From contig NZ_CP088239.1 in assembly GCF_021054785.1 (NCBI RefSeq), forward strand, positions 990,001 to 1,022,000: DNA of 32,000 nt, given 5' to 3'. This stretch comes from Tannockella kyphosi (lineage in GTDB: Bacteria; Bacillota_I; Bacilli_A; Erysipelotrichales; Coprobacillaceae). The notes below the pieces were generated by a model that was not told where the DNA came from, ran no database searches, and was given only the letters and a program-made list of their open reading frames with translations. Positions 15,368 to 21,641 of this stretch are shown piece after piece. Both the position numbers and the translations under genes were made by a program. How positions within the stretch are numbered: position 1 is the stretch's first letter; each line of letters begins with the position of its first letter.

Positions 15368-16786
15368 TTAAATTAATATACTGAAACTAGGTATGTATGT
15401 CATTAAAGCCCAAACAACAACCGTCATGAGTAAGACAACTATCACCGTTAGTTTAATCCCATGTTTAAACATATACTGTGGGTTCAACCCATATCCTACT
15501 GGTATTGCACGAATCGATGTAGGCATACAATAAGATAGATTAACCCCTACACTTGCTGCCAACATATATGGAATCGGATTTAAGTTTAGTGCTAACGCTA
15601 AACTTAAAACAATTGGTATTGCTACTGCAGCAGTTGCAGTGTTACTTGTTAAATCCGATAAAACAATCGTTAATGCAATAATTACAAACACTAACATCAT
15701 TTCATTTTGAAACTGTACAGTAGAAAGTAAATTACCTAAAGCTTGTGCTGCTCCACTACCATTAATTAATGTCCCTACTGCTAAACCTCCTGCAAATACA
15801 TAAATTAATTCCCATACTATTTTCTTTTGAACATTCTTCCAAACCATTAGTTTCTCTCCATTTTCTTTTTTGAAAAGAAAACTAATTAATGCACATATAA
15901 TAAAAATATAAGCAGGTTCTAAACCTGGTAATAAATGTTCATAGAATGATCTTGTAAATGACAAGATTGTTGCAATAACAAATAATAATAAGCACATTGC
16001 TTCATTTTTACTCATCTTCCCAAGTTCTTTGTTCTTTTCAACAAAATATGCTTTTGATCCTTCTAATTGAATGTTCTTAGGTTTAATAACCAATAAGAAA
16101 GCCAAATTAGATACAATTAAAACAATCATCACAGGGAAAAATTTAATTACCCAATCAATATACATAAACTCACTTCCTGTATATTGCTCAATATAATCAA
16201 CCACTACTAAATTCATTGCTCCTCCTAATGGACTAGCCAATCCCCCTAATCCAGCACCCCAAGCAATAGTTAGTAATAAAATAGATCCCACTTCACTTTT
16301 ATTAATATTTTCTATACCAATATAGCGAAGCATTGATACAGCAATAGGTACAACTGTTGCACACACGATTGCATTTGGTAATACAGCAGACATAGCCACC
16401 GATAATACAAACCAAAATATAATTTGTGAAGTCAAAGAAGAGCCTATTAACCCTAAGAAGACATAAGCAATTCTTTTGTCTAATTCTACCTCTTCCCATG
16501 AAACTGTTAATATAGATGCTCCTAAAAGTAATAAGATTGTTTCTGAAGCATAGTTTGCTATTACACTAGACATAGATGTCATTTCAATAATCGCATTAAT
16601 TGCTATTGGTAAAAAGCCTGTTACTGCATAGTCCATGCATGAACTAACCCACCAATACGCCATCCAAGCAACCGTACCAATAGCTGCTCTCATTTCAAAC
16701 GTAGTAAAAATACTTTCTGGTAAGAATGCAATGCATGATAGAAATAGGATTGGCCCTATTAGGATATGTATAGTATTCTTTTTCAT
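15368..16786 (-). CDS. DASS/SLC13-type (ArsB/NhaD superfamily) anion/carboxylate permease
   Basis: About 471 aa and polytopic. The two-repeat architecture and motifs (ASPLGGAMNLVV, SDLTSNTATAAVAIPI) fit SLC13-family permeases. The ATG at 16786 (MKKNTIH...) lies 2 nt after the carrier-protein stop; the listed 16804 start has no RBS. Confidence 0.75.
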   Translation of the reverse strand: MKKNTIHILIGPILFLSCIAFLPESIFTTFEMRAAIGTVAWMAYWWVSSCMDYAVTGFLPIAINAIIEMTSMSSVIANYASETILLLLGASILTVSWEEVELDKRIAYVFLGLIGSSLTSQIIFWFVLSVAMSAVLPNAIVCATVVPIAVSMLRYIGIENINKSEVGSILLLTIAWGAGLGGLASPLGGAMNLVVVDYIEQYTGSEFMYIDWVIKFFPVMIVLIVSNLAFLLVIKPKNIQLEGSKAYFVEKNKELGKMSKNEAMCLLLFVIATILSFTRSFYEHLLPGLEPAYIFIICALISFLFKKENGEKLMVWKNVQKKIVWELIYVFAGGLAVGTLINGSGAAQALGNLLSTVQFQNEMMLVFVIIALTIVLSDLTSNTATAAVAIPIVLSLALALNLNPIPYMLAASVGVNLSYCMPTSIRAIPVGYGLNPQYMFKHGIKLTVIVVLLMTVVVWALMTYIPSFSILI

Positions 16787-16787
16787 A

Positions 16788-17015
16788 TTACCCTTGTAAT
16801 TCACTAATTAATTCAACGATTGCATCAACAGAATTTAAATTTTCTGGCACTAAATCCATTACATCTATTTCTACATCAAATGCAAAACTTAGTTCACTTA
16901 CTAAACTAATAATAGATAATGAATCTAAAATACGTGAATCAATTAATTTTGTCTCTTTTTCATAATCTACTCCTGGATTTACTGTGTTTAAAATCTCAAT
17001 AATTTGTTCTTTCAT
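16788..17015 (-). CDS. Acyl/D-alanyl carrier protein (DltC-like)
   Basis: 75 aa with the phosphopantetheine attachment motif ILDSLSIISLVSEL (compare DltC LLDSFGTVELL). GAGGGAAAG RBS. Confidence 0.8.
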   Translation of the reverse strand: MKEQIIEILNTVNPGVDYEKETKLIDSRILDSLSIISLVSELSFAFDVEIDVMDLVPENLNSVDAIVELISELQG

Positions 17016-17026
17016 TTTCTTTCCCT

Positions 17027-17218
17027 CTACCCTATTTTGGTCTTTCTATCAATTTTTCCATTATATGTTCTAGGAACACTATCTATTTTTATAATGCTTC
17101 TAGGTCTTTTGAAGTCTTCTAAATTATTTAGGAAATGTTCTTCTAAAATCTTTGTATCAAAGTCAACTTCTGACACTATATACAAAACAGGAACAGCTCC
17201 TATTAATGCATCTTCCCT
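17027..17218 (-). pseudogene. C-terminal 63 codons of the DltA-like AMP-ligase, severed by the IS110 insertion
   Basis: The minus-strand frame reads REDALIGAVPVLYIVSEVDFDTKILEEHFLNNLEDFKRPRSIIKIDSVPRTYNGKIDRKTKIG*. This is the adenylate-forming enzyme A8-A10 region, including NGKIDRK. Confidence 0.85.
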
Positions 17219-17273
17219 TGTATGATATTAATGATCCTTGTTTCACTAATTACATACGCTCCTTTCTTATATT

Positions 17274-17282
17274 TGTTATAAT
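17274..17282 (+). promoter_or_regulatory. Extended -10 element TGtTATAAT inside the IS110 left arm
   Basis: Reads atatttGTTATAATgg. It would start transcription near 17289, upstream of the structured non-coding region and the transposase. Confidence 0.4.
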
Positions 17283-17288
17283 GGATAT

Positions 17289-17445
17289 AGAACCTATGTT
17301 TTGATTTTTACTATGGTTTTCGTCCATTTAAGGGAGACTAATACCATGGCTCTATATTTTTAATTTATAGTTGGATAAGCGTTAATGCTTTTATGTCACG
17401 CAAGGATATAGATATAGACTGCCATGGATAGACAAGGTTCTAGAA
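17289..17445 (+). ncRNA. Candidate IS110 bridge (seek) RNA
   Basis: A 14-bp interrupted stem pairs CCATGGC-TCTATAT (17344-17357) with ATATAGA-ct-GCCATGG (17412-17427). The enclosed loop carries ATAGTTGG (17367-17374), identical to the IS right terminus (18719-18726). AAGGGAGAC (17330-17338) is the reverse complement of the right junction (18725-18733). RNA ends are approximate. Confidence 0.4.
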
Positions 17446-17460
17446 AGGTGGTCTATTTTT

Positions 17461-18624
17461 ATGACTTATTACGTAGGCATTGATATTGCCAAAACAACGC
17501 ATTATGCTTGTGTTATCACAACTCATGGTGAAGTGATTCACCAACCTTTTCCTTTTGATAATTCAAAAGAAGGGTTTCATTTATTACTTTCCAAAATATC
17601 TTCTATTGATAAAGAAGATATTCTAATTGGTTTTGAATCTACTGCTCATTACCATCAAAACTTACATTCTTATCTTTCTACTTTTGGATACCACTGCGAA
17701 CTTATTAATCCCATCATATCCAAACAGTTTCGTGGTTTATCAGTTCGTAATGCTAAGACGGATAAAATTGATGCTATGTCCATTGCTCAACTTCTTTCTT
17801 ATCAGTACAACAATTCACAAGGTCAAGACTTTCTTGTTTCTGACTTACGTGTATATTGTGATGAAAGAGTTCGTCTTACTAAACAAAAGACAAAACTATA
17901 CATCCAACTAACTGCTGAGCTAGATCGTGTGTTCCCAGAGCTTAAATCCTTCTTTAAAGGCAATTTAAAGACGAATGCAGCCCATAATTTACTAAAACGA
18001 TACGCTACAGCTAAGGAAATAAAAGAAGTTCGAAATGAGGCTTTGACAAAGTTAATTTCTAAAAATAGTAAAGGCTTCAACCTCGAACGTATCAAAGACC
18101 TTAAATCGTTAAGTAAAAATAGCGTTGGCTTTCATTCAAACGCAATCTCTTTTAGAATTAAAAATATCATACTCCAAATCGAACTTCTAGAATCGCAGTT
18201 AGAAGATGTAGAAGCAAACATCATTGAAATGATGAAAGAAATAGACAGTGCTATATTGAATATCCCAGGTATGGGCTATATTCAAGGTGCTTACATCTTA
18301 TCTGCTATCATTAGTATAGACCGATTTGATAGTCCTTGTAAAGTACTAGCTTATGCAGGATTAGATCCAATCATAAGACAGTCTGGTAATTTTAATGCAA
18401 AGAGAACACGTATGTCTAAAAGAGGAAATGCTACACTACGTTATGCGCTTATATGGGCAGCTCATAATGTGGCAAAAAATTCAACAACTATGAATACTTA
18501 CTATTTAAAGAAACGCAGTGAAGGAAAATCTCATTACAATGCCTTAGGGCATTGTTCAAAGAAACTAGTAAACTATATTTACTTTGTCTTAAATAATCCT
18601 GATGAAAAATTCATCTTAGAATAA
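17461..18624 (+). CDS. IS110-family transposase (DEDD RuvC-like domain plus C-terminal Tnp domain)
   Basis: YVGIDIAKTTH (D), GFESTAHYH (E) and AKTDKIDA (D). C-terminal IPGMG..., GLDP...QSG...MSKRGNATLRYAL is typical of IS110/IS1111 recombinases. AAAGGTGG RBS. Confidence 0.92.
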   Translation: MTYYVGIDIAKTTHYACVITTHGEVIHQPFPFDNSKEGFHLLLSKISSIDKEDILIGFESTAHYHQNLHSYLSTFGYHCELINPIISKQFRGLSVRNAKTDKIDAMSIAQLLSYQYNNSQGQDFLVSDLRVYCDERVRLTKQKTKLYIQLTAELDRVFPELKSFFKGNLKTNAAHNLLKRYATAKEIKEVRNEALTKLISKNSKGFNLERIKDLKSLSKNSVGFHSNAISFRIKNIILQIELLESQLEDVEANIIEMMKEIDSAILNIPGMGYIQGAYILSAIISIDRFDSPCKVLAYAGLDPIIRQSGNFNAKRTRMSKRGNATLRYALIWAAHNVAKNSTTMNTYYLKKRSEGKSHYNALGHCSKKLVNYIYFVLNNPDEKFILE

Positions 18625-18729
18625 TTTTTTAAAAATAGCTTATTTTACCTTTTTTAGTGCGCTCTTTTTTAAGACTTAAAAGAAATTTAATTTTTTATCA
18701 TTTTTCTCTTGAAAAATCATAGTTGGTCT

Positions 18730-19986
18730 CCCTTTACAAATACAATCATTAACACCTTCTATTTGTAATGCTAATTCCTCTACTTCCAAAGGAGAAACTT
18801 TATTTCCTCCAGTAATAATAACATCATCTGCTCTACCTAACATATAAATTCTTCCTTCTTCATCTTTATATCCTAAATCAGAAGATTGTAAATATCCATT
18901 AATAATGGTTTTATTCGTTAATTCTGGTTCATTATAATAACACTTCATTTTCATTCCACCTGTATATGAAATATATCCTGGGTTTTCTAATGAGGCATCT
19001 TCCATTTCACCGCCATTTTCATCAACAATTCTAAATTGTGAATGAACTCCTGGGTAGCCTATACAGCTTTGTTTATTATCTTTCGAATTAAAGTTCAATA
19101 TACAAGCACATCCTACTTCTGTAGAACCATATATATTATATAAACGGACATTTGGTACTATTTGTAATAAATGTTCTTTATCTACTTCTGGTATAGGTGC
19201 TGATCCAAATTGAATATAATCTAATTGATCTGCATAATTCGCAATTCGATCCCTTGTCAATTTAAAAATAATACTCATTGCAGCTGGAGCCATTGCTAAT
19301 GCTGTTACTTTATATTTTTCAATCATATTAAATACTATTTTTACAAAAAATACACCATCTAATACTATAACAGTACTCCCATTAATCATATTCGCAAAAT
19401 ATCTTCTTAAACTAAAGGAATGATTCATTGGCATCGGTATGATTTCTACATTATCCTTTTTCATCTCAACACCATACATTACATTTTCTCCTACCGCTAC
19501 TTCTGCAAGATATTCTAAAACAATACCTTTCGACTTTCCAGTAGTTCCAGTAGTAAACAAAATCATTGAATCACCAACCATATTAGAAATATCAAAAGTA
19601 TTAACTACTCCTGTATAATTATATGCATCTTCGATGCAGTAACAATCATACCCATCTATTTTCATATCACCAAAGAACTTTGTTGCTTTTGTTTCCTTTA
19701 AAATCTCTTGAACTCTACCAACATTCACACTTTTTTCTAATGGAACAACTATTCCATTTATTAATTGAATAGCGTGTACTAATACTAAATAAGGAACAGA
19801 TTGACTATTCTTTACAACAATGCACTCATTGTCTTTTACACCTATTTCTAACAAATAACTAGCAGCAATATTTATCTTATCCCAATATTCTTGATAAGTT
19901 AGTTCTATCTTAACATCAATGATTGCTAGTTTATTGGGTGTACTTATTGCATGATTTCTAATACATTCTACTATTGATTTATTCAT
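18730..19986 (-). pseudogene. N-terminal 419 codons of the DltA-like AMP-dependent ligase (the listed ORF runs on into IS sequence to 18676)
   Basis: Adenylation motifs FTTGTTGKSKG (A3), NIYGSTE (A5) and GYLQSSDLGY...GRADDVII (A7/A8). GAGGAGG RBS. The last 17 residues of the listed ORF (RPTMIFQEKNDKKLNFF) are read from the IS110 right end. Confidence 0.85.
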
Positions 19987-20030
19987 CTGATTCCTCCTCT
20001 AATTCCCCAATATATCAATAGGAGCATTTT

Positions 20031-21641
20031 TTAAAATGCTCCATAAATAAACGCGCTTGCGTCATAACCAGCACCATACATCCCAAATATAATTACAATC
20101 ATTATTGCAACATAATAAATAATCCATCGAACAATTATATTTTGTTTTCCAATAGACTTTCTAATTTCAACCCCTTTTTCGTGTAAGATATCTACACCAA
20201 TCATACACACAACTCCTACGATTATAACAATAAAGTGTTTTTCAGTTAGGAGCGTACCATACAAATCGTGATTATAAACAATACTATTATTAAATATTTG
20301 CTTAAGTAATATAAAGAACCCTGTTGTAGTGCCAGTAATAGTAATCATTCTTCCTATACCAAATAAAAATATTGTTCTAAACATACAAAAAATATGATAA
20401 CAAAAGTTATTGCTTATAGAAATATTTTTAAATAATTTATCTGCTATTGGTTTAGTTTCTTTCGAAACAGTCATGATAGCACACCAATATAATCCCCATA
20501 AAATATAATCTATACCTGTTCCGTGCCAAATACCAGTAAATAACCATACTGTAATCAACGGGACAAATGCATTAATGAAAGATGCCCTCCATAGCTTTCC
20601 TGACTTTTTTAATTTCATCGTATATTTCATAAACTTTGAATTTACTGCTATAGGAAAGTAAATATAGTCTTTTGTCCAAGTTCCTAAAGTCATATGCCAT
20701 CTTGCCCAAAATTCAGAAGCACTCTTAGCAAAAAACGGTTGTTCAAAGTTTTTATCTAACTGTATACCGATTATTTCTGATATCCCTCGAACTATATCCA
20801 TACATCCACTAAAATCAGCATACAACTGAATAACACAAGAAATAATAGCTATTACTATTTCTATTGATGAATACTCTAATGGATTGGCAAATACAACAGT
20901 AGTATATGTTGCAATATAATTAGCAACAATTAATTTCTTACCATATCCCCATAGCATTAACTGTAACCCATGACAAGTACGATCAAAACTAAGACTAGGA
21001 AGGTTTTTCATTTGTTCTATTAATTTAGAATACTTACTTATCGGCCCTTGTACTATATGTGGGAAATAAATCATAGCAGCAAATAGATTGATAAAATCTT
21101 TTTCTGCTTCCGTTTTTTTCCAATATACATCCAACAAATATCCTATTGAAGATAAAGTGTAATAAGATATTCCTAAGGGAACTAGAATACCGAACCCAAA
21201 AGTCATGTTTGATATTTTTTCTAATATTTCAAAACTAAGTAATTTTGTAATTTTTACATAACCCCATATTGAAACAATCGTAAATATGGCAAGTTTCAAA
21301 TAAATAGTTGCTTTGTTTTTATATTGACTAAATAAGACTCTTTGTTCTTTAGGTGTTAGTCCTTGTTTTTCTTGATCAAACTCTTTATACACTTTTTCTA
21401 TTTTTCTAGATGAAAGATATACTGTTAATGCTGTTCCTACAACAATAATAGATGCTCCAACCCCATTCCAAAAATAGAATATCATACTTGCAATTAATAC
21501 TAGATATTTTCTAAGATTTGCATTTGGTAAAACAGCATACACTATAATAAAAAACATCAAACAAATCCCAAATAATCCTGATGTATAACTCAATTCTGCA
21601 TTCCACATCAATTGAGCAAAATTCAATATCCTATTTATCAT
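20031..21641 (-). CDS. MBOAT-family membrane O-acyltransferase (DltB/AlgI-like), 536 aa
   Basis: Polytopic, with MBOAT His motifs FWARWHMTLGTWTKDYIYFP and FTGIWHGTG. GGGGGAGG RBS. Confidence 0.85.
   Translation of the reverse strand: MINRILNFAQLMWNAELSYTSGLFGICLMFFIIVYAVLPNANLRKYLVLIASMIFYFWNGVGASIIVVGTALTVYLSSRKIEKVYKEFDQEKQGLTPKEQRVLFSQYKNKATIYLKLAIFTIVSIWGYVKITKLLSFEILEKISNMTFGFGILVPLGISYYTLSSIGYLLDVYWKKTEAEKDFINLFAAMIYFPHIVQGPISKYSKLIEQMKNLPSLSFDRTCHGLQLMLWGYGKKLIVANYIATYTTVVFANPLEYSSIEIVIAIISCVIQLYADFSGCMDIVRGISEIIGIQLDKNFEQPFFAKSASEFWARWHMTLGTWTKDYIYFPIAVNSKFMKYTMKLKKSGKLWRASFINAFVPLITVWLFTGIWHGTGIDYILWGLYWCAIMTVSKETKPIADKLFKNISISNNFCYHIFCMFRTIFLFGIGRMITITGTTTGFFILLKQIFNNSIVYNHDLYGTLLTEKHFIVIIVGVVCMIGVDILHEKGVEIRKSIGKQNIIVRWIIYYVAIMIVIIFGMYGAGYDASAFIYGAF

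Follow-up and report, generated by a model that had tools for sequence, protein, structure and literature searches.

A very likely bridge RNA in the left arm of an intact IS110-group insertion sequence of Tannockella kyphosi

The left non-coding arm of an intact insertion sequence of the IS110 group in Tannockella kyphosi very likely encodes a bridge RNA at positions 17285-17449 of the plus strand, as judged from sequence comparison; positions refer throughout to the window, that is the whole analyzed stretch of 32,000 nucleotides (contig NZ_CP088239.1). A bridge RNA acting with its recombinase has been described for IS621 of E. coli (Durrant et al., 2024, PMC11208160; Hiraizumi et al., 2024, PMC11208158). 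A guide RNA of the bridge type had been proposed for this arm in a first-pass annotation of the DNA, and the proposal is borne out by a conserved and covarying structure, by two loops bearing guides and by covariation between these guides and the DNA.

The insertion sequence, its recombinase and the interrupted gene

The element occupies 17219-18727 on the plus strand (1509 bp) and is flanked at either end by a CT core dinucleotide, the left copy lying at 17217-17218 and the right one at 18728-18729. The genome carries four copies of 98-100% identity, and the sequence common to them is exactly CT-TGTATGAT...CATAGTTGGT-CT; the same termini recur in about 100 relatives. The two termini show no inverted repeats to each other, and the longer of the non-coding arms (242 nt on the left, 103 nt on the right) lies upstream of the gene, which, together with the core dinucleotide on both sides, is the organization of the IS110 group. 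Upstream of CT-TGTATGAT the four copies diverge; here the left target half (ATCTTCC-C) and the left core copy are found at 17209-17218. On the other side, 18719-18736 comprises the right-end terminus ATAGTTGGT, which represents the left donor, followed by the right core copy and the right target half CCCTTTA, as read from the sequence and from comparison of the copies. Excision of 17219-18729 (1511 nt) rejoins ...CICKG to R-EDALIG... in frame by direct reading, so that both the shared ends of the four copies and the restored frame of the host gene agree with the element limits and the CT core as first annotated.

The single gene of the element (17461-18624, plus strand) is intact and encodes an IS110-family RNA-guided transposase of 387 amino acids. 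Its product was recognized by the Pfam models PF01548 (2.6e-36) and PF02371 (9.2e-21) and by the NCBIfam model NF033542 'IS110 family RNA-guided transposase' (209.7 bits at a cut-off of 140), in accordance with a DEDD (RuvC-like) N-terminal domain and a Tnp C-terminal domain with the catalytic Ser. Identity to the IS621 recombinase (326 amino acids) amounts to 25%, and all five catalytic residues are conserved, D8, E59, D101, D104 and S308 being aligned opposite D11, E60, D102, D105 and S241 of IS621, the roles of which were established by Hiraizumi et al. (2024, PMC11208158).

The window copy disrupts a minus-strand gene for an AMP-binding (DltA-like) protein. This gene belongs to a minus-strand operon (15368-21641) which also contains genes of an MBOAT protein, a DltC-like carrier and a permease. 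The adenylating ligase is cut by the insertion after residue ~425, which probably leaves the operon without function in this strain. When the flanks of the window copy were joined, the resulting sequence had no DNA-level match in 80 genomes of the family, and no orthologue of the region was found there at this level. Likewise, exact empty sites were not found in genomes of the same genus, in which sequences 65-77% identical could be aligned loosely across or up to the junctions of the copies L003 and L004.

Conserved and covarying structure of the RNA

Relatives of the element (about 100 loci, 43-58% recombinase identity) were collected by protein searches in 400 genomes of the same order and in one scan each of genome contigs and metagenome contigs. 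They all have the left end CT-TGTATGA and the right end CATAG(T/C)(T/A)GGT-CT, and their left arms align well from approximately position 17285 to the start codon. A covariance model, R1, was made from eight relatives, none of which came from this genome. It matched 17285-17449 over the full length (127.8 bits, E 1.7e-24, model positions 1-164), retrieved the four copies of the element and nothing more from the whole genome, and gave 84 matches across the related loci.

In the alignment of 76 distinct relatives, which was fitted to the structure, standard pairs filled 94.2% of the cells, compared with 67.6% in column shuffles. Changes on both sides were present in 27 of the 28 pairs, all five helices covary, and the covariation score was 0.734 versus 0.258 after shuffling and no more than 0.154 with the partners slid by 1-3 columns. 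As the alignment behind the pair counts was fitted to the structure, two independent checks carry weight, namely RNAalifold and the comparison of cognate with non-cognate helices. RNAalifold run on a plain MAFFT alignment recovered only the short hairpins of the target loop and of the donor loop, with compensatory changes, missing the long-range helices because indels misalign them; the helix comparison and realignment by the covariance model were therefore used. All 80 distinct sequences formed 6 bp or more between their cognate strands in both long-range helices, for which 50 and 61 different helix sequences were counted, and cognate strands paired over greater lengths than non-cognate ones (8.05 versus 6.08 and 8.25 versus 6.88). 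The minimum free energy (MFE) fold of the RNA has -42.1 kcal/mol (z = -2.25).

The outer helix P1 pairs UAGAACCU (17288-17295) with AGGUUCUA (17435-17442) and encloses both loops; all eight of its pairs change on both sides, and it accounts for the 50 distinct helices mentioned above. Helix 2 is the hairpin of the target loop, AUGG-uuuucgu-CCAU (17313-17316 with 17324-17327), paired in 99.0% of cells with GC/AU and AU/GU/GC exchanges. The donor loop stands on a basal stem of two parts, CCAUGGC (17344-17350 with 17421-17427) and UCUAUAU (17351-17357 with 17412-17418), separated by a CU bulge at 17419-17420. This stem of 7+7 bp (17344-17357 with 17412-17427), which had already been noticed in the first-pass annotation, is present in the MFE and centroid folds and corresponds to helices 3 and 4 of the family, paired in 92.2% and 91.4% of cells and changing on both sides at every pair. 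Helix 5, AAGC-guuaau-GCUU (17377-17380 with 17387-17390), is the hairpin of the donor loop (99.3% paired; AU/GC/UA/CG exchanges). The inner hairpin GCGT/ACGC previously drawn inside the stem found no support and was replaced by helix 5, because it competes with the conserved AAGC/GCUU and takes up bases (ACGC) of the right donor guide. Taken together, covariation supports a structured RNA of this arm in which two internal loops are formed. A basal helix of the target loop alone (17298-17302 with 17334-17338) was considered and rejected; pairing was confined to invariant or wobble columns, with the flanking pairs formed in 45-51% of cases.

A search of Rfam 15 at E ≤ 10 yielded only two chance snoRNA-like matches, both inside the transposase gene, and R1 gave no match to the IS621 RNA, also when the filters were switched off, so homology of the RNA to a characterized RNA or a curated model was not detected by either route. 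The assignment as a bridge RNA rests therefore on the recombinase family, on the layout of the RNA and on its covariation with DNA.

The target-binding loop

The right target guide UUAAGGG, the core-binding AG (17335-17336) and the putative handshake guide AC (17337-17338) follow one another at 17328-17338, with contiguous pairing from 17330 to 17334. Handshake guides are the two bases 3' of the core-binding bases; after strand exchange they pair with the non-cognate left half, at its last two bases (PMC11208158). The 9-mer AAGGGAGAC at 17330-17338 is read as AAGGG-AG-AC, corresponding to CCCTT of the right flank, to the CT core and to GT, the last two bases of the element. The composition assigned earlier to the junction opposite it (2 nt of the element, the CT core and 5 nt of target) is recovered in the three parts of the guide. 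Its exact reverse complementarity across the right junction was also confirmed, the position of the match being shifted by one nucleotide from 18725-18733, as originally given, to 18726-18734; 0.09 such matches are expected by chance in the window.

The left arms of the four genomic copies differ at three positions only, and one of these is 17332, where the window copy with its right flank CCCTT has G and the other three copies, with right flanks CCTTT, have A. Among 76 distinct guide/flank pairs, complementarity at RT+3, RT+4 and RT+5 reached 80%, 75% and 43%, compared with 55%, 47% and 30% when the flanks were permuted. The sum over RT+3 to RT+7 was 196 versus 144.8 ± 6.4, a value that none of 5000 permutations reached, and the contiguous run past the core was 3.86 versus 2.83 ± 0.09; in both cases the permutations ignore relatedness among the elements. 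In locus L032 the otherwise invariant GGAG is replaced by AAAG and the flank reads CT-TTCTAAA, which results in a perfect match of 9 nt.

It could be argued that AAGGGAG is a mere ribosome-binding site (RBS) of a small leader peptide (MALYF, ATG at 17346), given a Shine-Dalgarno-like motif 9 nt ahead of this ATG. Such an explanation is hardly credible, as the ATG is buried in the CCAUGG stem and is replaced in relatives, which have CCACGG, CCATCG, CTGTGG or CCACAG, no open reading frame is conserved, and it is precisely the variable positions of the motif that covary with the flank. We consequently retain the reading of this segment as the right target guide.

The left target guide GAUUUUUA with the core-binding CU (17303-17312) lies directly 5' of the hairpin. 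It was recognized by its identity to the left flanks over the whole family (384 versus 312.9 ± 12.8 permuted, relatedness among elements being ignored), with perfect matches of 10 nt in loci L116 and L117. At the four left flanks of this element it agrees in 2-4 of 8 positions, as many as on average after permutation, i.e., at the chance level. The target loop is accordingly exact and covarying on its right side, and on its left side significant family-wide and at chance level at its own four sites, so that the recognizable specificity of this element resides in the right half-site; we infer that its own sites are recognized mainly in this way. Insertion of IS621 is supported by half-matched substrates according to a 2026 preprint, and by analogy this may be relevant to the weak left match observed here. 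The putative handshake AC would pair with GT of the right end in this element; in the family AC was found in only 11 loci and AG, of which one base pairs, in 33.

The donor-binding loop

The left donor guide AUAGUUGG (17367-17374) is identical to the right-end terminus at 18719-18726. As was pointed out in the first-pass annotation, the 8-mer ATAGTTGG occurs exactly twice in the window, at these two places. With 1.35 matches expected window-wide the repetition is unremarkable alone, and what counts is its position and covariation. At one position the right ends of the family have either T or C, and the guide agrees with the end there in all 81 loci; three loci ending in ...GCAGG carry CAGG in the guide as well. 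A subgroup ending in ...GTAGG keeps UUGG in the guide, a standing mismatch in 8 of 8 loci. The identity of guide and terminus ends at GG, the RNA reading GG-AUA versus GG-TCT in the DNA, i.e., 3 nt before the end of the core. Thus, across copies and relatives, the guide nucleotides covary with the flanks on the right target side and with the end of the element on the left donor side, as had been anticipated for a bridge RNA.

The right donor guide is UCACGCAAG (17396-17404), and the adjoining GA (17405-17406) is the putative handshake guide of the donor loop. By direct reading UCACGCAAG forms seven Watson-Crick pairs, one G-T wobble and one mismatch with CT-TGTATGA, so that the second loop offers 8/8 matches to the right end and 7/9 plus one wobble to the left end. 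GCAAG of this guide is invariant in the family and occurs also in AUUUGCAAGG of IS621; the left end opposite this guide is invariant in the family too. The donor-loop handshake base is complementary to the last base of the left flank in 43% of 88 pairs versus 29% after permutation (p ~8e-4). The two partner guides which had escaped detection by eye have thereby been located, at 17396-17404 for the right donor and at 17303-17312 for the left target, with the proviso that the latter matches its own flanks at chance level. The order of the loops, target-related and then donor-related, is as first described and is that of the published target and donor loops.

In one relative, locus L055 (G381:C12), the whole donor-binding loop has been cleanly deleted, the target loop and the transposase gene being kept.

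One may ask in this connection whether the target loop alone (~17289-17343) is the working guide, as a short species of the 'seekRNA' type, with the second loop otherwise used or needed for some steps. For ISEc11, an RNA of 70-100 nt comprising the target-recognition regions and no more was reported to be sufficient (Siddiquee et al., 2024, PMC11187229), partial transposition with an RNA limited to the target loop is described in a preprint on CazIS110-1, and L055 has dispensed with the donor loop and not with the target loop. These observations are to be set against the conservation and covariation of the donor loop in 76 distinct relatives and against the left donor guide, which follows the right end in 81 of 81 loci and would be needless without a role in donor recognition. 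We consider a working guide of the target loop alone improbable and prefer a bridge RNA in which both loops serve as guides.

Promoters, leader and other features of the left end

An extended -10 element, TGTTATAAT, is present at 17274-17282, as initially noted, 5 nt before the outer helix, and represents a candidate internal promoter of the RNA. Sixty of 76 relatives have a -10-like hexamer at the same place before the RNA, 29 of them with the TG extension. A second promoter would be formed only on joining of the ends: in the sequence, when right and left end are fused with a single CT between them, TTGAAA (-35, 18709-18714) comes to lie 17 nt from TATGAT (-10, 17221-17226). Of 84 distinct right ends, 82 place a TTGAnn at 17-18 nt from TATGAT.

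The leader contains a conserved segment, CTCCTTTCT (17259-17267), identified from the family alignment, whose complement is found both in the transposase RBS and in the right target guide; in the MFE fold it pairs with AGAAAGGUGG. Its ability to pair with the RBS, together with the overlap of the RNA with that same site (GAAAGGUGG), could be taken to mean that the left arm is a cis-regulatory leader acting on transcription or translation of the transposase gene, the 8-9 nt matches being transposase-binding repeats at the DNA level or chance, all the more so as an 8-mer with 1.35 expected matches is not rare in the window. Repeats internal to the DNA cannot, however, explain why 17330-17334 covaries with host flanks specific to each insertion, and the matches are situated in unpaired strands of the loops and on the very strands predicted by the published model. 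A cis-regulatory leader of this sort is consequently very improbable as an account of the arm, and the bridge RNA remains the preferred interpretation.

On the minus strand CTCCTTTCT reads AGAAAGGAG and is followed by an ATG pointing out of the left end (17247-17267). The outward frame ends just before the host TTG in L002, overlaps the host ATG with its TGA in L004 and runs in frame into the host gene in L003; the window copy, in which position 17248 has changed from T to A, reads ATG-TAA. A translationally coupled outward open reading frame was considered for the left arm and not borne out, since the Shine-Dalgarno sequence and ATG are conserved but the frame mostly stops after 1-5 codons inside the element.

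At the start of the left end (17220-17257), GTATG and CATAC form the arms of an inverted repeat that has further pairs inside and a T-rich run behind it, and the same arrangement is seen in relatives, e.g., GTATGAT...ATCATAC in L021 and L033. This repeat could terminate read-through from outside, and transcripts of the junction promoter, starting inside the hairpin, could escape it.

Insertion-site preference of the family

With few exceptions the loci have CAT plus 5-8 nt at the end of the left flank and CC(T/A/C)T at the beginning of the right flank; for the subfamily the target can be written as CAT-N5-8-CT-CC(T/C)TT (flanks of loci L021-L139). The opposite strand of the site reads AAGGAG-AG before the insertion point and AG-spacer-ATG after it. 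As read from these flanks, the family targets genes on the opposite strand and inserts between their Shine-Dalgarno sequence and start codon, which in the integrated state are severed from each other. The family right target guide (AAGGAG) is itself a look-alike of the Shine-Dalgarno sequence, which would explain why the elements land at such places. Three of the four copies in the genome occupy sites of this kind; the window copy lies in the Shine-Dalgarno-like AAAGGGAGG within the DltA-like coding region, and its guide has the G that matches AAAGGGAGG.

Insertion sequences of the IS900/IS901/IS902/IS116 group of mycobacteria and Streptomyces use the stretch from the RBS to the start codon as insertion site, in one orientation and with a consensus resembling CATG-N4-6-C-N-CCTT. 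The site type is the same as CAT-N5-8-CT-CC(T/C)TT here, the hosts being distant.

In three loci (L031, L065, L090) the right end is followed by CT-TGTAT..., resembling the start of a left end, which suggests an insertion beside a left-end remnant or else a tandem or junction form.

Taken further, this branch of IS110 elements in Firmicutes might home to RBSs by means of a right target guide copying the Shine-Dalgarno sequence, the right half-site being perhaps enough for insertion of elements like the present one, and the conserved outward Shine-Dalgarno sequence and ATG, with a frame ending on or fusing to the host start codon (L002-L004), might replace the severed translation signals and rewire the host gene. 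We mention this as a speculation of rather low probability.

Proposed mode of action and significance

By analogy with IS621, transcription of the RNA and its binding by protein may be assumed, and the following sequence of events can be proposed. The RNA, closed by the outer helix and with the target-binding loop first and the donor-binding loop second, would be bound by the DEDD/Ser recombinase encoded just downstream. The donor loop would pair with the junction at which right and left end are joined in the excised element, the target loop would pair with a site in the chromosome that reads (left flank)-CT-CC(C/T)TT, and strand exchange would take place at the CT core.

The element provides a clean natural case of targeting by a bridge RNA in a branch far from IS621 (25% recombinase identity), in which a difference of one base between the guides of copies in one genome matches a difference of one base between their targets. 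With about 100 related elements for which guides, ends and flanks could be compared, the 2024 model extends to this branch, and variations within it come to light: the nested architecture, the offset of the left donor guide from the core and the weak requirement for the left target in some elements. Because insertion is directed to RBSs, the elements sit at gene starts, and knowledge of this is useful for annotation. The bridge-RNA mechanism itself has been known since 2024, and the present element very probably adds a well-supported example to it, leaving knowledge of the mechanism unchanged.

Comparison with seekRNA systems and IS621

The seekRNAs of elements of the IS1111 and IS110 types (Siddiquee et al., 2024, PMC11187229) are likewise RNAs of a non-coding region associated with the transposase, with short segments matching both target strands, and in the IS110 type the non-coding region lies, as here, upstream of the gene. 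They were described mostly for IS1111-type elements, with the RNA downstream of the gene, subterminal inverted repeats and a reverse order of guides, none of which applies to the present element.

The RNA of the IS621 locus of E. coli, read in the same way, is ...AUCGGGCCU...UGCGUAGAU...ACAGUAUCA...AUUUGCAAGG. In one IS621 locus (L140, positions 1575-1720, E. coli ETEC-2264) the first ~65 nt of the left arm are partly duplicated in tandem, CT-TGTATTATCCC...GGGCCT occurring twice. IS621 differs from the element studied here in several respects. Its RNA, undetected by the R1 model and accompanied by a recombinase of only 25% identity, folds into two tandem stem-loops, whereas here one outer helix closes both loops and the donor arm is nested. 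The left donor guide of IS621 runs into the core, whereas that of the present RNA ends 3 nt before the core end. Unlike in IS621, a leader of 66 nt and a possible internal promoter precede the RNA, and the target is an RBS rather than a REP-like sequence.

Other features are shared. In both systems the RNA is encoded in the left arm, upstream of a DEDD/Ser recombinase; the core is CT and the left end starts with TGTAT; the target loop precedes the donor loop, and both loops repeat the top strand on their 5' side and complement it on their 3' side. Both right target guides have next to them AG for the core and 2 nt at the handshake position (UGCGU-AG-AU in IS621, AAGGG-AG-AC here), GCAAGG is found within the right donor guide, and a promoter sequence is rebuilt over the joined ends. 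The strand rules, the order of the guides and the positions of the 2-nt handshakes in the T. kyphosi element thus agree with those reported for IS621 (PMC11208160; PMC11208158).
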